7,319 nt of DNA from a virus, in IMG/VR virus record IMGVR_UViG_3300002520_000061, positions 1 through 7,319 of that record; one strand, 5' to 3'. Within the stretch, counting starts at the first letter, position 1; each line of letters opens with the position of its first letter. A model generated the notes under the pieces. It was not told the DNA's origin and did no database searches. It saw only the letters and a program-made list of their open reading frames with translations. The position numbers were made by a program, and so were the translations under genes. Shown here piece after piece: positions 1 through 7,319 of the stretch.

Positions 1-99
1 GGCCGAGCATTAAACATAAACACTCGACATTATGCGCAGTCACCACACATTGTGTTGTGGCCGCGCTTCCAGGTACGCGCTTTTACAGGATGAAATGCT
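1..99. repeat. Left copy of the exact 99-nt terminal direct repeat (circularisation overlap)
   Basis: Bases 1..99 (ggccgagcattaaacataaacactcg...ggatgaaatgct) are identical to 7221..7319. The window ends exactly at the end of the repeat. Confidence 0.95.
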
Positions 100-129
100 G
101 ATGCCGATAAGTAGCTTTATCGGCATCAG
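98..129. other. Perfect 13-bp-stem hairpin in the large intergenic region (packaging signal or minus-strand origin candidate)
   Basis: ctgatgccgataa (98..110) pairs perfectly with ttatcggcatcag (117..129), leaving a 6-nt loop. On the coding strand it lies just downstream of the last morphogenesis gene and its terminator. Confidence 0.5.
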
Positions 130-136
130 AGATAAC

Positions 137-169
137 AAAGAAAACGGCGTGGCCCAAGGGCCACGCCGT
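137..169 (-). terminator. Rho-independent terminator after the Zot/pI-like gene
   Basis: An 11-12 bp GC-rich stem, acggcgtggcc (144..154) with ggccacgccgt (159..169), has a 4-nt loop. On the minus strand it is followed by TTTTCTTTGTT (plus-strand aacaaagaaaa, 134..144). It sits 28 nt past the stop codon at 197. Confidence 0.75.
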
Positions 170-196
170 CGGCGTTAGTGCGCTCAGCCCGCTATC

Positions 197-1528
197 TCAC
201 GCCGACGGCGTGGTTAGACTGGCTAAGGTGGTGACGTTCTCGGGCATGGCAAGGCCACCATTTTGTTTGGGGGCTGGCGTCACAATACGAGGCTGACAGT
301 TAACAGTAATGGCGCGGCCATTGCGGTCTGTGACCACCGAATAGCAATCGCCCAGGTAATCGACCTTATACCCAAGGTTCACCAAGTCATCAGAGTTAAA
401 CGCAAGTTCATCCTTGCCACGCATCCCTGTAAACAAAACCAGCCCCTCAAATCGTCCCGCATAAATCGCGCCACTGGCACCAGTGCTAAACAGCTCGGCA
501 ACGCCATACGGCATCACGAAAGCAGACTGAGGGCTCCCGTTGCCAGCATTCGAGTTAGAAACAGACACAGCCACAGGATCAGCAGACGCAGCAGAACCTT
601 CTTGAGCAGCCACAGGCTGCCCACCTTCAGGTAATGCAGGGTCAGCCGCAAACTTTGCATAAAGAAGCCAGCCCCAGCAGACAAACACGAGCGGTATAAC
701 GACAAACAGGACAAAACGAACCTTAAACGAGGATAACGGGCCGCTAGATTGCCCAGATTTGGTAACAGAGCCTGTTTGAGTGGACTTATATAGCATGTGC
801 ACAGCCAGCGGCACACGCCGCTTAAACGTGACGCTCTGCTTGGTCGGGATGCCGTTTTCAAGGGGGTTGTGCTCATAGATGCGGGGTTTCCGTCTGGAAA
901 GAAAAAACGAATCTTTGCTGGAATAAGCAAAGGCCACTTCACAGCAGGCCCGAACGGGCCGAGGGATAGAGGTAATATCGGGCGTTGCAAACACCACATC
1001 CCAGTTATAGTGACGGTGACGCATAAACGATTCTTTGGGGCTGGTCGGATACATAATCTGGCCCCGTTCATCGAAAACCACCCTCCCCGTATCATCGGTG
1101 TCACACTCTTCAATAGTCTCGGGTTTATAACTGGCAAGAACGTCTTTAAAGAGCTGGATAAAGTCAGCAGGTAACACATTGCTATAGGTATCAATCGGCT
1201 TTAGGTTGTATTCCTCCTGCCCCTTAAATACATCTCTATCATATATATCCTGACATTCATCAATAAAGACGAATGCGCCAATGGGCATCCAGTGATGCCA
1301 GCGCCGCCAGAGTTCTTGATATTTCGGGTCTTGCGAACTGACGCGAAACAATTTCGCGGATTCGGGGAACTTCTCACCGAGAAATTCCTCGATTTTATGC
1401 TTGGGCCACATGCCCGCCGCGTTCGTGACAACGAGGCGGCCAGCGCGAAGCGCAGGAAGCAGGCGAAACCAGATTACAGAGCTGGATTTATAAGAGCCGT
1501 TGTGACCGTGTTCAATGACGATTGCCAT
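197..1528 (-). CDS. Zot/pI-family phage assembly ATPase (zonula occludens toxin-like P-loop NTPase)
   Basis: 443-aa ORF. The N-terminus MAIVIEHGHNGSYKSS carries a Zot-type Walker A (GxxGSYK[ST]). FVFIDECQ is a Walker B candidate. A single TM segment (FVLFVVIPLVFVCWGWLLYA) is followed by a C-terminal domain of about 150 aa. It is the last gene of the structural block and forms a TAAATG junction with the upstream gene. Confidence 0.88.
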   Translation of the reverse strand: MAIVIEHGHNGSYKSSSVIWFRLLPALRAGRLVVTNAAGMWPKHKIEEFLGEKFPESAKLFRVSSQDPKYQELWRRWHHWMPIGAFVFIDECQDIYDRDVFKGQEEYNLKPIDTYSNVLPADFIQLFKDVLASYKPETIEECDTDDTGRVVFDERGQIMYPTSPKESFMRHRHYNWDVVFATPDITSIPRPVRACCEVAFAYSSKDSFFLSRRKPRIYEHNPLENGIPTKQSVTFKRRVPLAVHMLYKSTQTGSVTKSGQSSGPLSSFKVRFVLFVVIPLVFVCWGWLLYAKFAADPALPEGGQPVAAQEGSAASADPVAVSVSNSNAGNGSPQSAFVMPYGVAELFSTGASGAIYAGRFEGLVLFTGMRGKDELAFNSDDLVNLGYKVDYLGDCYSVVTDRNGRAITVNCQPRIVTPAPKQNGGLAMPENVTTLASLTTPSA

Positions 1529-1930
1529 TTACCACCCCATGATATTCATGACAAAGCGTGTGATGTAGACGTTAATCAACAGGTTAAGCGCATTGGCAAA
1601 ACCAAGCTCTTGAAGACCCCAACGAACGCCGCTAGGTAATTGCGATATGGCGGCTGAGAGATAAGCCGCGATATTAATATCAGTCGCTATTTGCTGGGCA
1701 ACCAGATAGGCAAACTTAATCATATGGAGCTTGGCTGTTAACATCGCCAAGGTGTAATACTCTACACCCCACGCAACAAAACGATGAAAAATGCCGGGCA
1801 CTTCCTCAGTGATGGCATAGTGCAAATCGTTGAGTTGCTGGCCTACATAGTCCAAGAAAGATGATGAATCATCAGCAGCAAAAGCAAGCGATGGCAGAAA
1901 GAACAGAGCCCAAATAATCAAGTTACGCAT
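1529..1930 (-). CDS. pVI-like minor coat / virion-cap protein (position of ace in CTXphi)
   Basis: 133-aa ORF with a hydrophobic N-terminus (MRNLIIWALFFLPSLAFA) and further hydrophobic segments. It sits between the pIII-like and pI-like genes. It overlaps the pIII-like stop by 8 nt (ATGCGTAA). The function is assigned by synteny only. Confidence 0.6.
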   Translation of the reverse strand: MRNLIIWALFFLPSLAFAADDSSSFLDYVGQQLNDLHYAITEEVPGIFHRFVAWGVEYYTLAMLTAKLHMIKFAYLVAQQIATDINIAAYLSAAISQLPSGVRWGLQELGFANALNLLINVYITRFVMNIMGW

Positions 1931-3179
1931 TTTTACGACCCCCCATCAAAATTGAAAAAGCAAGCAAAACAGCAAGGAACCAAATGGCCATTTTAGGGCC
2001 GGAATTAAAAAACAATTCGAGGTTAGATTTGCCACTCAAATCAACCCTAACGCCATTTATATCGTGATAATCATTATTGTAAGTGCCAGTGATAGTTAAT
2101 TCCTCAGGCGCAAAAACTGACTTAACATCATTCATAGCGTCAGATATTTCAGTGTCTTTATTCTCTATTTGTTTTTTAACGTCATCAATGGATTCGGTAG
2201 AAAACACCTTTGACAAGGCAGAGCCAGAACTGCCGGATGGCTTGTTAAAAGAACAGAGAGGCCCCTCGCATGGTTTATCACCCCCCTCGCCTCCCCCTTG
2301 ACCATTACGCAATAGCTCCTCAATAGATTCAAGCGCAGAAACCATATTGCCAGCTTGCGCAGCTGACATCTCAGTATTCTGACCTATTTGATGCAATTTC
2401 CCCCATAAGCCGTCAGTGTTACTAACAACGCGAAGATTTGCATTGATTAACGAGTTAAGATGGTTTTGAATTTGCGCCAAATCAAAACTGTAATCAGGTG
2501 AGCTCATATTCTCAAGCTGACCAATTAATCTACGTTCTTTAGCATCCCAATAATCGGAGCTTAGAACCTGCTTGTTATTAAGCGTGGTCAGGTGAAAATT
2601 GGTTGTTTCGCCAGTTTGAGAAATTGAACCTGTTATACCCTGAGTATAATTTCCAATACGCTTTAAATCCTGACTGGATTCAGAGAGGTATTTAGAGGCA
2701 TCAAAAGAAAAAGATTCAAACTTCCTTGAGAAATCCTTAATGTCTCCAGAAACTTTTTCAGAGGCCACACGAACGTTATTTGAAACAACGTTAAAGCCCT
2801 TACCTAAATCGGCATGGCTATTTTGACCAACCCACAGCTCGCCCATATTAACAACACCATTGCCACCTGTGGCGGTGCCATCCTCACCAACAGGAGGGTT
2901 TGGATCTTTCCCAGGGCCGTTATTATCAGTAGGGGTACACTCTTGGCCGCTAGAAAAGTAAGGGCCGCGGGTAGGAGGAACGGCGTTAGGCAGCTCAACA
3001 CAAACAGAGCCATTATCACCCCCACCGCAATAGGCATAACAACCGCCCAGTGTAGAACCCGAATAAACATAGCAAATGGGGTTTGGTGAAACGATATGAG
3101 CAGAGCCGTAATTTACGCCGGGGGCACAGCCAGCGAACGCGGCAAAAGGGGAAAAAAACAAAGGTAAGAGATAACGCAT
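1923..3179 (-). CDS. pIII-like adsorption / minor coat protein; start re-assigned to Met13 of the listed ORF
   Basis: 418 aa counted from the ATG at 3179 (MRYLLPLFFSPFAAFAGC...). It has a signal peptide ending AFA/GC. The N-terminal domain carries 6 Cys and is followed by a Gly/Pro-rich linker (TDNNGPGKDPNPPVGEDGTATGGNG) and a second Gly-rich stretch (NGQGGGEGGDKPCEGPLC). The C-terminal TM anchor is MAIWFLAVLLAFSILMGGRKNA. AGGTG lies 5 nt upstream of 3179. The listed start at 3215 lies just upstream of the terminator hairpin, so that reading frame would run through it. Confidence 0.8.
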   Translation of the reverse strand: MRYLLPLFFSPFAAFAGCAPGVNYGSAHIVSPNPICYVYSGSTLGGCYAYCGGGDNGSVCVELPNAVPPTRGPYFSSGQECTPTDNNGPGKDPNPPVGEDGTATGGNGVVNMGELWVGQNSHADLGKGFNVVSNNVRVASEKVSGDIKDFSRKFESFSFDASKYLSESSQDLKRIGNYTQGITGSISQTGETTNFHLTTLNNKQVLSSDYWDAKERRLIGQLENMSSPDYSFDLAQIQNHLNSLINANLRVVSNTDGLWGKLHQIGQNTEMSAAQAGNMVSALESIEELLRNGQGGGEGGDKPCEGPLCSFNKPSGSSGSALSKVFSTESIDDVKKQIENKDTEISDAMNDVKSVFAPEELTITGTYNNDYHDINGVRVDLSGKSNLELFFNSGPKMAIWFLAVLLAFSILMGGRKNA

Positions 3180-3192
3180 GGCGGCACCTAGT

Positions 3193-3213
3193 AAAAAGGG
3201 GGCCGAGGCCCCC
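3193..3213 (-). terminator. Rho-independent terminator between the coat-gene block and the pIII-like gene
   Basis: The minus strand reads GGGGGCC-TC-GGCCCCC followed by TTTTT (plus strand aaaaa 3193..3197, gggggcc 3198..3204, ggccccc 3207..3213). An attenuating terminator after gene VIII is a known Ff feature. Confidence 0.75.
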
Positions 3214-3217
3214 ACAT

Positions 3218-3298
3218 TCAGGAGGTGAACACCCCCGACAGAAACGCAGCCCCAAACACAAACGCGCCAGTGGCTGCTAGGATGGCGGCTACGAGCAT
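3218..3298 (-). CDS. Unlisted 26-aa hydrophobic micro-ORF (small minor-coat or membrane peptide candidate)
   Basis: My translation of the minus strand gives ATG CTC GTA GCC ... TCC TGA = MLVAAILAATGAFVFGAAFLSGVFTS*. The ATG lies 3 nt after the coat stop and in the same frame (TAA GTC ATG). The ORF ends 4 nt before the terminator hairpin. No clear SD is present, so coupled re-initiation is plausible. Confidence 0.45.
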   Translation of the reverse strand: MLVAAILAATGAFVFGAAFLSGVFTS

Positions 3299-3301
3299 GA
3301 C

Positions 3302-3529
3302 TTACTTACGCAGCCAGCTAACGATCATGCCAAGGGCAAAGCCGAGCGCAGCAACACCGATAACACCAGCAGTCACAAGACCGTAGTTTTCCTGACCAGT
3401 TGCAATAGCCGCTTCGATTGCAGTCTTGGTATCCGCAAAAGCGGGCGCGGCCATCAGAGAGGCAGCGGCCACTGCGGGAACGGTCGCTTTTTTCATGCCA
3501 GCGGCAAACAGCTTATTAATCTTTTTCAT
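3302..3529 (-). CDS. Major coat protein (pVIII-type) precursor
   Basis: 75 aa. The signal peptide ends AAPAFA|D. The roughly 43-aa mature peptide is DTKTAIEAAIATGQENYGLVTAGVIGVAALGFALGMIVSWLRK. It has an acidic N-terminus, a hydrophobic core and a basic C-terminus, the classic inovirus coat layout. A GAGGG RBS lies 7 nt upstream. An alternative start is Met12 at 3496. Confidence 0.9.
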   Translation of the reverse strand: MKKINKLFAAGMKKATVPAVAAASLMAAPAFADTKTAIEAAIATGQENYGLVTAGVIGVAALGFALGMIVSWLRK

Positions 3530-3545
3530 GATATTTCCCTCAAAG

Positions 3546-3803
3546 TTAACGACTTATCTTTCTAGCGATAAGACCAGTAAAATAACCTGCCAAAAACAGC
3601 AGGATAAAATACAGAACAAACATGCCGAAATATTCGGGGTCAAACCCGAATAAATCGGTTACACCTAATACCTTGTCTAATTCCGTTGGAGTTAGCAGGG
3701 TATAAACTAACGACCCGTCCGCGCTTATTTGCGGGCAAACATCTAGATGCTCTACCCGAGTTATCCCTGTAGTGGAGTCAACAAAGAAGCACGGACGAGA
3801 CAT
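3546..3803 (-). CDS. Small membrane protein (possible pVII/pIX-equivalent minor coat or morphogenesis protein)
   Basis: 85 aa with one C-terminal TM segment (FGMFVLYFILLFLAGYFTGLIA) and a basic tail. It forms a TAATG overlap with the upstream gene. It sits immediately upstream of the major coat gene. Confidence 0.6.
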   Translation of the reverse strand: MSRPCFFVDSTTGITRVEHLDVCPQISADGSLVYTLLTPTELDKVLGVTDLFGFDPEYFGMFVLYFILLFLAGYFTGLIARKISR

Positions 3804-4120
3804 TAGAATTTGGCCTCTTTGGCTTGAGCACCTACAGAGGATTTACCAACGATACCAGAAACAATGTTACGGGTAAGGTCAGTCGGATTAGGCTGCACCT
3901 CCACATCAACCATTTCACCAATCTGACACATGGCAAATTGATTAAGGGCTGATGGCTCTAAATCAACCTCTTTAACTTCATAACCAAAGCCATGATAATT
4001 CATGGTCGCGGTAGTTACGGGCTTGATAGGTACAGCATAAGAAAACATGCACATGTCATATTGCTTGCCTGCTTTTGATGTACCGTGACGACGGGCGGCA
4101 CCAATAAACATTACTTTCAT
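3803..4120 (-). CDS. pV-like ssDNA-binding protein candidate
   Basis: 105-aa soluble protein in the gene V position, after the replication genes and before the coat genes. An AGGAA RBS lies about 9 nt upstream. The function is assigned by size and synteny only. Confidence 0.55.
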   Translation of the reverse strand: MKVMFIGAARRHGTSKAGKQYDMCMFSYAVPIKPVTTATMNYHGFGYEVKEVDLEPSALNQFAMCQIGEMVDVEVQPNPTDLTRNIVSGIVGKSSVGAQAKEAKF

Positions 4121-4139
4121 ATTTTAGGTTCCTATATTT

Positions 4140-4152
4140 GGTCACTGTTACT
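4140..4152. promoter_or_regulatory. Motif copy GGTCACTGTTACT in the 44-bp gap upstream of the pV-like gene
   Basis: It is intergenic (4121..4164), about 20 nt upstream of the pV-like start codon and next to its RBS. Confidence 0.6.
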
Positions 4153-4164
4153 TTATTTGGGCTG

Positions 4165-4587
4165 CTATTCCAATATGCGGCCATCTGGGTATTGCAGGAA
4201 TGCGCTAACAGAGTTCGCGTAAATCCCCACGTAAAACTCCTCTGCTTTGTCTTTATCGGCAAAGCGTAGGTGTTTAATCTCGGCGTCCATGGTTTCCCAT
4301 TGGACTAAATACGGGCCGTGTTCGGCGATTAACTTGTTACGTTCGGCGGCCATGCGAACATCAATACACATCTGGCGATTACAATAACCGTCACTGTTAC
4401 CGTTAATCGGCAGGTAACAACAAGGACAAATAGATTGAAGGGTCATCGCCTCCCCCAGTTTGCCAGGTGAAATTCGAATACTGGAACGAGACGGGCCACA
4501 GAACCGAACGGCGGGCAATCTCATTGCCTGCAATATATGGGCGTGTTTGGTCGCGCCCCGATGCTCAATGGATAAATAGTCAATCAT
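4165..4587 (-). CDS. Hypothetical Cys-rich protein in the RstB position
   Basis: 140-aa ORF with an ATGA overlap onto the Rep stop. A GAGGG RBS lies 7 nt upstream. It contains CPCC-x14-C-x4-C (CPCCYLPINGNSDGYCNRQMC), a possible zinc-ribbon-like element. A shorter form could start at Met48 (4446, preceded by GGGGGAGG). Confidence 0.6.
   Translation of the reverse strand: MIDYLSIEHRGATKHAHILQAMRLPAVRFCGPSRSSIRISPGKLGEAMTLQSICPCCYLPINGNSDGYCNRQMCIDVRMAAERNKLIAEHGPYLVQWETMDAEIKHLRFADKDKAEEFYVGIYANSVSAFLQYPDGRILE
4389..4401. promoter_or_regulatory. Motif copy CGTCACTGTTACC inside the 140-aa ORF
   Basis: It matches 12/13 to GGTCACTGTTACC. Here it is read in a different frame (GNSD in INGNSDGY). 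An extra half-site, GGTAACA, lies at 4413..4419. Confidence 0.5.
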
Positions 4588-5753
4588 GCTACGACCCTCA
4601 GTTGAAGTTTGGGCATTTGATACCAGCTAGGCGGCAAACATTCCTGACGATGAATCTCGGTGCAGGAAACCATTTTTACAGGGCTGAACTGGCTAATATT
4701 GCACGGACGAGCAATATCAATTCCAATTTTCCGAAGGCGGGCGCGGTGTGTTTGGATTTGCCTTCTTTCGAAGTCAAACTGATGGCCATGCATCCACTGA
4801 AAGGCATAAATAGCAGTGGTGTTTGCTGCTCGAGCAGAATCAACTATTCCAGCAGAAAGTAATTGTGTGGCAATGGTTTCAAATTTCATATTAGACACGC
4901 TCAGTTTTTTGTCTAGGCTGGTAAACTCCGACATTACGGTTTCGAGTCTGGAGTAGTCTGATTTGCCCCAATATTGCAAACCTTCACGCTGCAAATAACG
5001 ATATTTAAATTTCAGCTCATAGCGAACCAAGCCGACCGACCAACAATAGTCAATCACACGCTGCAAATGCTCAACTTCATCTGACTCTGAGCCAAAAGCC
5101 TTGGTTACTTTAGGTAATGAATGCAACTCCAATTCATTACCCTTGGCATACACACAAGGATATATTAACGCCGAATTATTTTTCTTTGACTTCCAATCAC
5201 AACCATATCCATTTGTGAATAAGTGAGGGATTGAGTTTCTATATGAAAGTGTAGATACCGCCGATATATATTTTTTTTCGTTCTCAGCACCAACAGTAAA
5301 GTTTTTAGTGGTATGCAACCCTTTGATGATGGCTCCATCAGCACCAATGCGCTGCATAGGGGAGCCACCTTCAAAAGAATCGTCTCTATAAAAAATTTGC
5401 GTGCACTTGGTGAACTGGGGAACGAAATCAAAACGCCCGTATACCTCTCTCAAGATCTCATTGAATTTGTGAACACACTGGTCAACGGTCGTAAATCCCC
5501 ACAGATTTTCGAGGCGACCCCAGCGGCTGGGATTGCCGCTCATAAAAAGACGATTCCCAGATGCGCGAATGAGCACGGAGTCACAGAAAGAACCCTTGTG
5601 ACTGTAGGCAGGAGACGCAATGCCATTGTCTTGAACAACCTCCCCTTGCTCGACAACAAGGCGAAGGTACGCATTGCCATCAAGCAACGGTAAAGGCTGG
5701 GCAAACGTCTGTTCTATCTCAAGCCAATCGAAGAACACAAAAGTTCCATCCAT
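4584..5753 (-). CDS. Rolling-circle replication initiator, gpII / RstA (Phage_CRI-like) family
   Basis: 389 aa. The N-terminal FFDWLEI and the SGNPSRWGRLENLWGF segment resemble, by recall, the (I)DWL and SGNPSK..GHN.FG / ASPAKVLQGHNVFG motifs of filamentous-phage initiators. It is the first gene of the operon and is divergent from the HTH regulator. Confidence 0.8.
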   Translation of the reverse strand: MDGTFVFFDWLEIEQTFAQPLPLLDGNAYLRLVVEQGEVVQDNGIASPAYSHKGSFCDSVLIRASGNRLFMSGNPSRWGRLENLWGFTTVDQCVHKFNEILREVYGRFDFVPQFTKCTQIFYRDDSFEGGSPMQRIGADGAIIKGLHTTKNFTVGAENEKKYISAVSTLSYRNSIPHLFTNGYGCDWKSKKNNSALIYPCVYAKGNELELHSLPKVTKAFGSESDEVEHLQRVIDYCWSVGLVRYELKFKYRYLQREGLQYWGKSDYSRLETVMSEFTSLDKKLSVSNMKFETIATQLLSAGIVDSARAANTTAIYAFQWMHGHQFDFERRQIQTHRARLRKIGIDIARPCNISQFSPVKMVSCTEIHRQECLPPSWYQMPKLQLRVVA

Positions 5754-5844
5754 GCATACTGTTTGGTGGCTTTATACACCTGAGTCCTCATGCATGCAAC
5801 ACTGAGTGTTAAAATGTGCACACAAGGACACAAAGGGCCGCATA
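5754..5844. promoter_or_regulatory. Divergent promoter/operator region between Rep and the XRE regulator
   Basis: On the minus strand, TTGCAT (5799..5794), a 17-nt spacer and TATAAA (5776..5771) lie just upstream of the Rep ATG. On the plus strand there is an extended -10, TGTTAAAAT (5807..5815). The inverted repeat AACAC-tga-GTGTT (5798..5810) overlaps both promoters. The palindrome TGTGCACA lies at 5816..5823. Confidence 0.55.
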
Positions 5845-6174
5845 ATGCAGCACATAAGCGATAACATAAAACGTATACGCAATGAGGCAGGGCTGAGTCA
5901 GCAGGAACTTGCAGATAGAGCTGGGATATCAAAATCCCAAATCTGGAGGCTGGAAAAGGGAGAGCAAAAAAACCCCACCCTAGAAACACTCATACCGATA
6001 TCAACGGCACTTGGCGTATCTCTAGACGAGATCGTGTTTGGGGAAGAATCAAAAAACGCCACCTATTTATCAAAGGCGATAGAAGAGCTGGAGCCTGAAG
6101 ACAGGAAAGCTATACGGAAAATCATTAGGGGGTGGATCCTGATGAGTCACAATGAAAAGATTTTTGAAGAGTAA
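5845..6174 (+). CDS. XRE/Cro-CI-family helix-turn-helix transcriptional regulator (phage repressor candidate, RstR-like position)
   Basis: 109 aa counted from the ATG at 5845. MQHISDNIKRIRNEAGLSQQELADRAGISKSQIWRLEKGE is a textbook HTH_XRE N-terminus. AAGGG lies 8 nt upstream. The listed ORF begins at a GTG (5806) inside the predicted promoter and is unlikely to be the true start. Confidence 0.85.
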   Translation: MQHISDNIKRIRNEAGLSQQELADRAGISKSQIWRLEKGEQKNPTLETLIPISTALGVSLDEIVFGEESKNATYLSKAIEELEPEDRKAIRKIIRGWILMSHNEKIFEE

Positions 6175-6219
6175 AGATTGAGCAGTGCCCAAGGGGGGAT
6201 ACCGCGGGTTATTGCGGTA

Positions 6220-6248
6220 AAGTCCGGGAGTCACTGAACCCCGGACTT
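6220..6248. other. 9-bp-stem hairpin downstream of the XRE gene
   Basis: aagtccggg (6220..6228) pairs with cccggactt (6240..6248), leaving an 11-nt loop. The loop contains gtcactg, a half-site of the recurrent motif. Confidence 0.5.
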
Positions 6249-6259
6249 CAAAACGCCCC

Positions 6260-6289
6260 AAAACCCCCTGCCCCGCGCTGGGGGTTTTT
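6260..6289 (+). terminator. Rho-independent terminator of the XRE gene, possibly bidirectional
   Basis: AAAACCCCC (6260..6268), an 11-nt loop, then GGGGGTTTT (6280..6288) plus a further T. The A-tract and T-tract flanks allow termination in both directions. Confidence 0.65.
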
Positions 6290-6610
6290 CATGCCCAAGA
6301 CATAGCCAAAGACCAAGACAAGGCGAAGACCTCCACATGGGCTTGTCTACGACACGAAACAGGGGTTGTTACCACACGCGCCCCATAGCCTTCGGCTGGT
6401 CGCTCTGCCTGTGGCCTCAAAGACTGGTTTTGCAGGAAGGGGGGGTATTGCAGCTTTGCCTCTACGAGATCATGAATCACATCGAGGAGGCCGACACATC
6501 GGGGAATAGGTCCTCGGGACGCAAGCGCCCTGCGGAACGGCGTTTATCATGGCTCGCGCTGCTCACCATATGCAGGGAGGCAGCAGCGGATGGCGGCGGG
6601 ATATGGGGCC

Positions 6611-7102
6611 CTACGTGAGGGCCGCATCAAACACGCACTTAGCCAGGCTATCGAGGTCGGCGGCAGGCAACCCCAACGATTCGGGGGCGTTGGCCAGCAG
6701 TGTCTTGAGCGTGGCCATGTGGGCACGATTAAAGGTAACTGTTACCGTATCTTGAGCCTTGCGGGCGCGGTATCGGGCTTGTTTCTGTGCCGGGGTGAGC
6801 GCCTTGCCAGTCTTCGGGCGACCAACTGGGCGCTTTTTGGGAATGAGGTCGAGCTGTATTTCGGTCACTGTTACCTTATTTGCTACGTCATTTTGAGCGG
6901 TTTTTACGTCATTCTCGGGAACCCACAAGGCGAACTCTGGGCCGTTCTTGGGAGCGCCGGCAAACTTCCCAGTGCTCTTGATAACCTTCTTCTCGACCCC
7001 ACAAATCAGCACTATCCAGTGCTGTTTGTTCTGGGTCAAAACAGGCCAATGAGTACCCTCTTCGCAACCGATGCCGGATTTTGTAACAAGCAGTCTATCC
7101 AT
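6611..7102 (-). CDS. Hypothetical 163-aa protein with a basic putative DNA-binding segment; accessory/regulatory gene candidate
   Basis: A GAGGG RBS lies 8 nt upstream of the ATG at 7102. The composition looks like a natural protein, unlike the 178-aa antisense ORF. The central motif is KKRPVGRPKTGKALTPAQKQARYRARK. I recognise no family with confidence. A 27-bp palindrome lies 13 nt upstream of the start codon. Confidence 0.65.
   Translation of the reverse strand: MDRLLVTKSGIGCEEGTHWPVLTQNKQHWIVLICGVEKKVIKSTGKFAGAPKNGPEFALWVPENDVKTAQNDVANKVTVTEIQLDLIPKKRPVGRPKTGKALTPAQKQARYRARKAQDTVTVTFNRAHMATLKTLLANAPESLGLPAADLDSLAKCVFDAALT
6734..6746. promoter_or_regulatory. Motif copy GGTAACTGTTACC (perfect 6-1-6 palindrome) inside the 163-aa ORF
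   Basis: The core is identical to the core of the 27-bp palindrome. It encodes VTVT in DTVTVTF. Confidence 0.6.
6863..6875. promoter_or_regulatory. Motif copy GGTCACTGTTACC inside the 163-aa ORF
   Basis: It encodes VTVT in NKVTVTE. The extended match to the 4140 copy is tatttcGGTCACTGTTACCTTATTTG against tattt-GGTCACTGTTACTTTATTTG. Confidence 0.6.
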
Positions 7103-7114
7103 GATTTTGCCCTC

Positions 7115-7141
7115 TATTTATGGTAACTGTTACCATAAATA
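7115..7141. promoter_or_regulatory. 27-bp perfect palindrome containing the motif GGTAACTGTTACC (operator or origin candidate)
   Basis: tatttatggtaac-t-gttaccataaata has two 13-nt arms that are perfectly complementary. The core motif is at 7122..7134. It lies between the 163-aa ORF start and dif-like site A. Confidence 0.7.
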
Positions 7142-7149
7142 AAGTGATG

Positions 7150-7177
7150 GCTGCGCATAATGGGGTTTATATTCAAT
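7150..7177 (+). other. dif-like XerC/XerD site A (candidate attP half)
   Basis: gctgcgcataa-tggggt-ttatattcaat. By recall, E. coli dif is GGTGCGCATAA-TGTATA-TTATGTTAAAT. The XerC arm matches 10/11 and the XerD arm 9/11, with a 6-nt spacer. Confidence 0.6.
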
Positions 7178-7220
7178 GACACATACGTGTGCCCCCTGCC
7201 CCTTCGGGATTATCGCAGGG

Positions 7221-7319
7221 GGCCGAGCATTAAACATAAACACTCGACATTATGCGCAGTCACCACACATTGTGTTGTGGCCGCGCTTCCAGGTACGCGC
7301 TTTTACAGGATGAAATGCT
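7221..7319. repeat. Right copy of the exact 99-nt terminal direct repeat
   Basis: Identical to 1..99. No flanking non-phage DNA lies outside the repeats. Confidence 0.95.
7229..7260 (-). other. dif-like XerC/XerD site B, inverted relative to site A (also present as 9..40 in the left repeat copy)
   Basis: The plus strand reads attaaacataa-acactcgaca-ttatgcgcagt. Its reverse complement is actgcgcataa-tgtcgagtgt-ttatgtttaat. The XerC arm matches 9/11 and the XerD arm 10/11 to the recalled dif. The spacer is a non-canonical 10 nt, so the site is not a normal duplex dif site on its own. Confidence 0.55.

Follow-up and report, generated by a model that had tools for sequence, protein, structure and literature searches.

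Several described systems use small proteins that act at short, repeated DNA sites. In the omega repressor of pSM19035 and in ParR/parC, a small ribbon-helix-helix protein binds short repeats at several places on the replicon, including its own promoter; these repeats are contiguous 7- or 11-bp units and lie in intergenic DNA. Auxiliary looping operators located within genes are familiar from lac O2 in lacZ, O3 at the end of lacI, and gal OI in galE. CopG (RepA) of pMV158 is a small dimeric repressor that binds a pseudo-palindromic element over its own promoter and excludes RNA polymerase (PMC2724298), and proteins of family PF10723 (RepB-RCR_reg) have been reported beside Rep_1 and G5P-like genes on small circular replicons (PMC10378824). 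This work concerns a recurrent palindromic motif in the IMG/VR virus record IMGVR_UViG_3300002520_000061 (positions 1 to 7,319; this whole stretch of 7,319 nucleotides is called the window below). The window is a circular genome of 7220 bp, with bases 1 to 99 recurring at 7221 to 7319, and represents a CTX-like Aeromonas inovirus. We conclude that the five copies of the motif are probably operators of a protein encoded by the phage itself, 163 amino acids (aa) in length.

The copies were initially described in an analysis of the letters of the window without database searches, referred to here as the sequence-only reading. All five are present where it had placed them:

S5, 4140-4152, + strand sequence GGTCACTGTTACT, in the 45-bp gap from the 140-aa gene to the RstB-like gene
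S4, 4389-4401, + strand sequence CGTCACTGTTACC, inside the 140-aa gene, read G-N-S-D
S3, 6734-6746, + strand sequence GGTAACTGTTACC, in the 163-aa gene, read V120-T121-V122-T123
S2, 6863-6875, + strand sequence GGTCACTGTTACC, in the 163-aa gene, read V77-T78-V79-T80
S1, 7122-7134, + strand sequence GGTAACTGTTACC, within the 27-bp palindrome at 7115-7141

The motif had been written as the 13-mer GGT(A/C)ACTGTTAC(C/T), a form that fits four copies but not the one at 4389, which opens with C. The core common to all five is the 11-mer GT(A/C)ACTGTTAC, beginning at 4141, 4390, 6735, 6864, and 7123 and identically oriented throughout; A/T-rich bases on both sides of every core extend the full site to a palindrome of ∼25 bp. 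The spacings of 249, 129, and 259 bp and the reading frames (VTVT twice in the 163-aa open reading frame and GNSD in that of the 140-aa protein) had been given correctly, and the 27-bp palindrome is real. S5 occupies the middle of its gap and ends 20 nucleotides (nt) from the ATG of the RstB-like gene, and the end of S1 is likewise 20 nt from the ATG of the 163-aa gene. Within the latter gene, S2 lies at the border of the N-terminal domain and the linker, and S3 encodes the predicted beta-strand (VTVTFNR) of a ribbon-helix-helix fold. Recurrence by chance had been considered unlikely, and our counts agree: the 13-mer had 0 matches in 200 dinucleotide-preserving shuffles, and the degenerate 11-mer GTMACNGTKAC is expected from base composition at 0.027 (∼0.03) matches per genome, compared to the 5 observed. 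As also noted previously, the divergent region between rep and the XRE gene (5754-5844) lacks the motif, even with up to 3 mismatches allowed.

From the occurrence of one motif in different frames and in noncoding DNA, the sequence-only reading had argued for selection on the DNA itself, and synonymous sites in relatives bear this out. Third-base identity was scored at 58 conserved codons across 20 distinct homologues of the 163-aa protein (median pairwise protein identity, 60%); these relatives are not phylogenetically independent, but synonymous sites elsewhere in the same alignments are near random. The six codons with the highest third-base identity all lie in or beside motif copies (median identity, 0.51):

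N125, AAT in 20/20, flank of the VTVTFNR copy (S3)
F124, TTT in 19/19, flank of the VTVTFNR copy (S3)
V120, GTA in 20/20, in the VTVTFNR copy (S3)
K118, AAA in 17/17, flank of the VTVTFNR copy (S3)
E81, GAA in 14/14, flank of the VTVTE copy (S2)
V122, GTT in 19/20, in the VTVTFNR copy (S3)

Invariant residues outside the motif have random codons (for example, V40 is encoded by GTT 4 times, GTG 6, GTA 6, and GTC 4), and only 14% of the Val codons in the phages' large genes are GTA. Variation among homologues is seen at the positions that the motif does not constrain, namely its center and outer flank. In the other frame used by the 140-aa gene, the Asn codon is AAC in 17/17 cases, the Asp codon GAC in 17/17, and the following Tyr codon TAT in 16/16, and the alternation of the central residue between S and G mirrors that of the central base between A and G. 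The codons also follow the upstream sites: GTA and GTT accompany upstream sites of the form GTAAC..GTTAC, and short plasmid homologues with upstream GTCAC-N-GTGAC carry GTC (13/13) and GTG (11/13) at the same two Val codons. Because third positions under the motif are fixed and those of other conserved codons are randomized, the proposal that the motif is under selection at the DNA level is strongly supported by these comparisons.

The same data bear on the alternative that only the promoter-proximal copies function, with the in-gene copies arising from a need of the proteins for VTVT or GNSD and resembling the operators through ancestry or gene conversion. VTVT is indeed conserved at the protein level across the wider family, and recombination between copies does happen, as a 59-bp deletion described below illustrates. 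This explanation nevertheless leaves the fixed third positions and the A/T-rich flanking codons (AAA, GAA, TTT, AAT, and TAT) unaccounted for, and it must contend with a copy in another frame of another protein (the 140-aa gene) and with linker copies that reach five in one relative, L050. We therefore regard it as quite improbable.

About 50 loci encoding homologues of the 163-aa protein were retrieved (given here as L numbers), each oriented with the regulator gene on the plus strand. The scan of related inoviruses that the sequence-only reading had proposed gave a positive result, as the motif and its positions are conserved in ∼25 distinct relatives whose regulator proteins are 40 to 96% identical. 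These relatives have three sites upstream of the regulator gene, with start-to-start distances of 31 to 32 and 27 bp, and the last of these stops 20 nt short of the regulator ATG. The regulator gene itself holds one or two further sites, at VTVTE and VTVTFNR; a pair is separated by 129 bp in most relatives and by 105 bp in L009. The 140-aa gene has one site (GNSD). In the subclade of the window, another is located ∼20 nt before the RstB-like ATG, 246 to 249 bp from the site in the 140-aa gene. Most members of a second subclade lack the pre-rstB site and instead have one within rep, ∼300 nt from its start and in the same register (GHCD). Tabulated by position, 43 distinct upstream sites give A-W-T-T-A-Y-G GTAAC N GTKAC C-R-W-W-A-A-T, which is palindromic over ∼25 bp and has A/T-rich arms. 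A preference for GTAAC-N-GTGAC in the gene-sense orientation was considered and dropped, since it involved approximately three independent site positions and was not significant.

Among deposited sequences searched more directly, an exact scan of viral contigs for the 21-bp center of the palindrome gave no match, and neither did megablast of the whole genome or tblastn of the 163-aa protein against deposited phages; with a Shewanella homologue as the query, the single match was an unannotated swan-cloaca phage. Two variations on the arrangement were also observed. In L050, three upstream sites are accompanied by five VTVT sites within the gene (L050:728-999), the first four of the latter being 42, 42, and 54 bp apart in the predicted linker and in helical phase; they resemble an operator array written into a disordered protein segment. 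In some relatives, the regulator gene is immediately preceded by a paralogue of it, 168 aa in length (L037:3727-4233, L036:8794-9300, and L009:7129-7254). The operators belonging to these paralogous genes differ in their flanks, AAAGTAAC-N-GTTACTTT, a hint that paralogous regulators may tell sites apart by their flanks.

The distribution of the motif indicates which protein is the likely binder. Copies were found in a phage whose initiator is of the Rep_trans type (L033), in Rep_1/Mob plasmids (L017), and in pAerI (L046, NZ_MK907532.1), a plasmid of 2287 bp whose incomplete PLSDB gene table consists of rep and a 94-aa homologue. Many relatives with a missing or replaced XRE gene retain the motif, as do relatives without the 140-aa gene, and neighboring inoviruses without the regulator gene lack it. 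Thus, the motif tracks the 163-aa gene family rather than the Rep type or the XRE gene. On pAerI we additionally observed an unannotated small open reading frame, MSVIKKKPRSLSLTPEVEDKLLKLCDQLGVNPHAYLLNEV..., that spans the record start (2077-2287 into 1-40), shows a typical ribbon-helix-helix pattern, and has a distal operator copy (27-37) at its end.

Site and protein also vary together. Among short plasmid-type homologues, the helix before VTVT contains EKQA where the sites are GTAAC/GTTAC and ERQAK where they are GTCAC/GTGAC. Many family members that carry coiled coils have a recurrent (G/S/R)-N-V-T, which would encode GTAACGTNAC, a palindrome without the central base. This palindrome was predicted from the protein sequences and then found, as GTAACGTTAC, four times in L048 and five times in L049; each locus has two copies over the promoter, 26 bp apart, at least one in the gene at GNVT, and one near a dif-like site. 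A different dimerization domain thus accompanies a different half-site spacing. The sequence-only reading had suggested that the binder may be the 163-aa protein rather than the XRE repressor, and co-occurrence and co-variation across phages and 2-kb plasmids favor the 163-aa protein over both XRE and Rep. The XRE protein was rejected as the binder on distribution: it is an HTH_3 protein encoded by a separate gene that is missing from many motif-bearing relatives.

An alternative binder would be a global regulator or nucleoid protein of the Aeromonas host, recruited by phages and plasmids, with the 163-aa protein doing something else. The close relatives all come from one genus, and six members of the wider family are fused to the C-terminal domain of H-NS, which hints at a link to nucleoid proteins. 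Strict sites are nevertheless confined almost entirely to units that carry the gene, with 72 in 80.9 kb of phage units and 1 in 58.4 kb of adjacent DNA, including host DNA and other inovirus prophages that lack it. A host factor would also have to accommodate a palindrome that shifts from GTAAC-N-GTTAC to GTCAC-N-GTGAC to GTAACGTTAC with the protein subfamily, and sites that lie over the promoter of this particular gene in every lineage. This alternative is therefore an unlikely one in our judgment.

The remaining options of the sequence-only reading, binding by Rep, an origin element, or a partition-like site, were not supported. Rolling-circle initiators do bind repeats near the nick site, and S1 is a long palindrome near the dif-like region, so the sites could in principle be repeats for a pII/RstA-type Rep or part of a plus- or minus-strand origin or packaging signal. 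But the motif is kept alongside three unrelated initiators (Phage_CRI, Rep_trans, and Rep_1), coding DNA holds most of the sites, hairpins at four of the five are no better than those of shuffles, and the long palindrome appears to be a deletion junction absent from relatives; a replication role is very improbable on this evidence. An RNA or single-stranded DNA (ssDNA) hairpin was rejected for the same set of sites, as only the fused S1 beats shuffles (z = -7.8), with the other four between -1.3 and +1.4.

A centromere-like or pairing array has more in common with what was found. The protein would in that case be a ribbon-helix-helix stabilizer of the ParG/ParR/omega type, or one like pSK1 Par, and autoregulation would be a side effect. 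Clustered repeats flank the promoter of the gene as in parC/ParR, extra sites include the in-phase array of L050 (42/42/54 bp), and the fold is ribbon-helix-helix-like. However, no partner nucleoside triphosphatase (ParA or ParM) is encoded in the 7.2-kb genome or found in the open reading frame list or the incomplete PLSDB table of pAerI, the replicons are small and probably high-copy, and the closest annotated relatives are replication regulators (PF10723). The sites, moreover, are scattered in coding DNA and form no single array; unlike the contiguous repeats of omega and ParR, they are isolated 25-bp palindromes 25 to 260 bp apart, mostly inside genes. We consider a partition role unlikely.

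The preferred reading, operators of the 163-aa protein, directs attention to that protein. Its homologues are nearly all from Aeromonas, and every one is annotated as hypothetical. An AlphaFold monomer model comprises an SH3-like beta domain (residues 1 to 60), a disordered linker, a basic helix (104 to 118), the extended VTVTF segment (119 to 125), and two helices (126 to 137 and 147 to 162). The family has an invariant segment, RGRPxTGxALxxAxKQARYRAR, formed by an RGRP arm and the basic helix. Relatives freely combine several unrelated versions of the N-terminal domain and of the last two helices, with junctions at the two in-gene sites. An exhaustive profile search of the wider family returned 562 cluster representatives. 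In several of these (P0184, P0208, P0224, P0225, and P0265), the RGRP/basic-helix module is fused to the H-NS C-terminal DNA-binding domain and accompanied by extra VTVT motifs; other family members end in long coiled coils.

A link to described regulators came from the family rather than from the window protein. Of 145 family members, 8 matched PF10723 along almost its full length, with 2 passing the cutoff, and 3 matched RHH_1 (PF01402). When the window module was compared by hhalign to the members matching PF10723 or RHH_1, the probability was 99.7%; VTVTF aligned with their beta-strand and the last two helices with theirs, and the score was dominated by the conserved N-terminal part. We infer that the 163-aa protein is a divergent relative of the PF10723 ribbon-helix-helix regulators with an added RGRP/basic-helix reading head. 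It resembles them in that the matching members share its RGRP/basic-helix module and occupy the same small rolling-circle niche; it differs in having an N-terminal SH3-like domain and a long linker, and its last two helices are divergent and swapped among relatives. We did not find the operators of PF10723 proteins described in the literature. Literature searches on Aeromonas inoviruses, ribbon-helix-helix regulators of filamentous phages, the motif strings, and PF10723 gave no description of the protein, the site, or the arrangement, with the motif strings retrieving nothing but estrogen- and antioxidant-response elements. PHROG matches were confined to families of unknown function. Most likely, the family represents undescribed regulators carried by filamentous phages and small rolling-circle plasmids.

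Relatives also indicate how the sites are placed with respect to transcription. A promoter scan found TTGCCT/TTGCAA-17-GATAAT directly upstream of the regulator gene in pAerI, L045, and L042. In relatives, the middle operator falls inside the 17-nt spacer; the first lies 31 to 32 bp farther up, just upstream of the -35 element; and the third is 27 bp downstream of the middle one, beginning ∼8 nt past the -10 element, at approximately +2 to +14. Such a layout would be classic for a regulator that represses itself by occluding its promoter. An operator placed within the -35/-10 spacer is comparable to the arrangement of CopG. In contrast, CopG is co-transcribed with rep and controls it, whereas the 163-aa gene is apart from rep and no site lies at the Rep/XRE promoter; further differences are that the distal sites of the 163-aa system are in coding DNA and that sequence similarity between the two proteins is undetectable.

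Predicted sites thus cover the core promoter of the regulator gene in relatives but not in the window. Aligned to L013, L014, L036, L038, and L045, the window lacks 59 bp in a clean gap, across which the left flank of the first upstream operator, U1, meets the right flank of the third, U3 (window 7115-7141 versus L013:126-205 and L045:4153-4232). The deletion took out the remaining operator along with the predicted -35 and -10 elements of the 163-aa gene, and no sigma-70-like promoter is left upstream of that gene. The closest relative, L045, whose protein is 96% identical, has all three operators. Recombination or slippage between U1 and U3 would explain the deletion, because they share ∼21 bp. 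On this alignment, the 27-bp perfect palindrome of the window is a derived junction, a fused operator that is absent from relatives. Collapse during assembly is an unlikely cause, because the shared repeat is far shorter than the 99-bp terminal overlap, assuming that this overlap reflects the assembly k-mer. An exact search for the 163-aa protein of the window, which could have revealed the deletion recurring in other samples, found no record. The sequenced phage may therefore be a natural regulatory mutant. The mutations in the repressor region of superinfective Pf4 variants (PMC8402870) are a possible parallel to this promoter deletion.

The transcription unit that runs from rep to the structural genes contains the distal sites S4 and S5; its genes are listed here with the remainder of the genome:

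197-1528, minus strand: Zot (PF05707)
1529-1930, minus strand: pVI-like gene (profile search)
1923-3179, minus strand: pIII-like gene (open reading frame list)
3302-3529, minus strand: coat gene (open reading frame list)
3546-3803, minus strand: 85-aa open reading frame (open reading frame list)
3803-4120, minus strand: RstB-like ssDNA-binding gene (PF07459, E = 4e-9), the first gene downstream of S5
4165-4587, minus strand: 140-aa Cys-rich gene, which hosts S4 (PHROG 31547, function unknown)
4584-5753, minus strand: pII-type Rep (profile search, Phage_CRI)
5845-6174, plus strand: XRE-type repressor, HTH_3 (profile search)
6611-7102, minus strand: gene of the 163-aa protein, the proposed binder (no Pfam match)

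The second distal site differs by subclade, being located before rstB in one and inside rep in the other, and the site in the 140-aa gene is kept in both. Because the subclades place the second site differently yet both retain that of the 140-aa gene, the pattern suggests selection for at least two distal sites, as cooperative bridging would expect. The sequence-only reading had envisaged a second regulatory circuit touching both the ssDNA-binding and structural genes and the regulator's own promoter. The latter part gains from the predicted own-promoter sites in relatives, although the promoter of the window is not intact; the connection to the ssDNA-binding and structural genes is positional only.

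Several observations weigh against the conclusion that the copies are operators of the 163-aa protein. The window protein itself has no Pfam match at E ≤ 0.1 and none in NCBIfam, and the Pfam search gave no helix-turn-helix match. A sequence search of the PDB with two family profiles yielded matches at chance level. Foldseek, run with full-length and C-terminal monomer models in which the ribbon cannot form, gave weak SH3-like matches to the N-terminal domain and none for the DNA-binding part; a match to PcfF, a ribbon-helix-helix protein, at E = 9.8 was set aside as having no evidential value. The ribbon-helix-helix assignment thus draws on the predicted topology and on an indirect profile link dominated by the N-terminal module. 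The co-variation of helix residues with half-site centers is suggestive, as it comes from a few related lineages and describes a shift in preference, not a clean code. The promoter scan found no convincing sigma-70 promoter next to S4 or S5, and with its predicted regulator promoter deleted, the circuit may be inactive in the window.

Taken at its most probable, the mechanism would operate as follows. A dimer of the 163-aa protein would read two GTNAC half-sites with its basic helices and a beta-ribbon, and the RGRP arms would contact the A/T-rich flanks of a ∼25-bp duplex site with the core GTMAC-N-GTKAC. In the ancestral form, the protein would repress its own synthesis, because three operators cover its promoter. 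At the distal and in-gene operators, bound protein would bridge and loop the DNA or block transcription within the rep-to-structural-gene unit, damping expression of the ssDNA-binding and virion genes. In the window, operator-operator recombination would have deleted 59 bp, leaving one fused operator and no recognizable regulator promoter. That the protein binds, which way it regulates, and that it loops DNA or acts as a roadblock are all inferred from sequence comparison.

A bolder extension is that the regulator encodes its own operators by design, with the codons of its VTVT strand and linker doubling as binding sites so that the gene body forms an operator array. We put this forward tentatively, at somewhat less than an even chance. 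Like the auxiliary operators of lac and gal, the in-gene copies would be operators in coding sequence, tens to hundreds of base pairs from a promoter-proximal operator; unlike them, they belong to the gene of the regulator itself and specify its most conserved strand, multiply in the linkers of relatives, and occur family-wide.

The window resembles CTX phage, with its RstR/RstA control region, and Pf4 in kind and in the broad order of modules: it has an RstB-like gene, Zot, dif integration, and a divergent XRE repressor beside rep, and that oppositely oriented XRE gene separates the 163-aa gene from rep. In contrast, RstR and Pf4r are helix-turn-helix proteins that act at the rep promoter, and the 163-aa regulator would be additional, unrelated, and directed to other targets. 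An inverted pair of dif-like sites, ∼85 bp apart, lies beside the S1 operator (window 7150-7179 and 7229-7260, the latter equal to 9-40). Integrated relatives (L042:14990-15280 and L038:15205-15490) have the right junction ...GTGGTGACTGCGCATAATGT/ATATTATGTTAAA, with the slash marking the junction point, which is a canonical dif site; they form tandem arrays adjoining a gene for a Lon-like protease. Judging from this junction, phages of the window type would use XerCD to integrate at the host dif, as CTX phage does. The 140-aa protein, for which PHROG 31547 was the sole match, has a conserved Cys-rich motif (CxCC...C...C) and may bind zinc; CTX phage has no counterpart at this position between rep and the ssDNA-binding gene. 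The converging XRE and 163-aa genes are separated by 435 bp of G+C-rich DNA (6175-6610) with a terminator-like hairpin at the start (6265-6284), no convincing open reading frame, and no Rfam match; indeed, the Rfam search found no family anywhere in the window. This region is a candidate place for origins or a packaging signal.

In function, the system would resemble CopG- and omega-type repressors and looping operator arrangements. What would be new compared with these is the extra reading head together with the N-terminal domain, target sites other than the rep promoter, and, above all, candidate operators in the regulator's own codons. In Ff phages, the ssDNA-binding product helps switch duplex replication to the production of single strands for virions; the S5 target sits immediately before the ssDNA-binding gene. 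CTX-type phages have been studied mainly through one repressor of the rep promoter, and the present analysis points to a second layer in which one protein would use a 25-bp site at five targets. Loss of normal regulator control through the 59-bp deletion could bear on the abundance of this phage as a free circle. The module, which has no name in the Pfam, NCBIfam, or PHROG libraries searched, occurs in >500 sequence clusters from Aeromonas, Shewanella, and other bacteria, on inoviruses and on plasmids down to ∼2 kb. The in-gene candidate operators suggest that regulatory DNA can dictate synonymous sites and even the residues of a disordered linker. If the self-encoding design is correct, the one to five in-gene copies, which are in phase in some relatives, would give autogenous roadblock or looping control, and evolution of the recognition strand would be tied to that of the operator. 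The array would likewise provide microhomology that drives domain shuffling and promoter deletions like that of the window.

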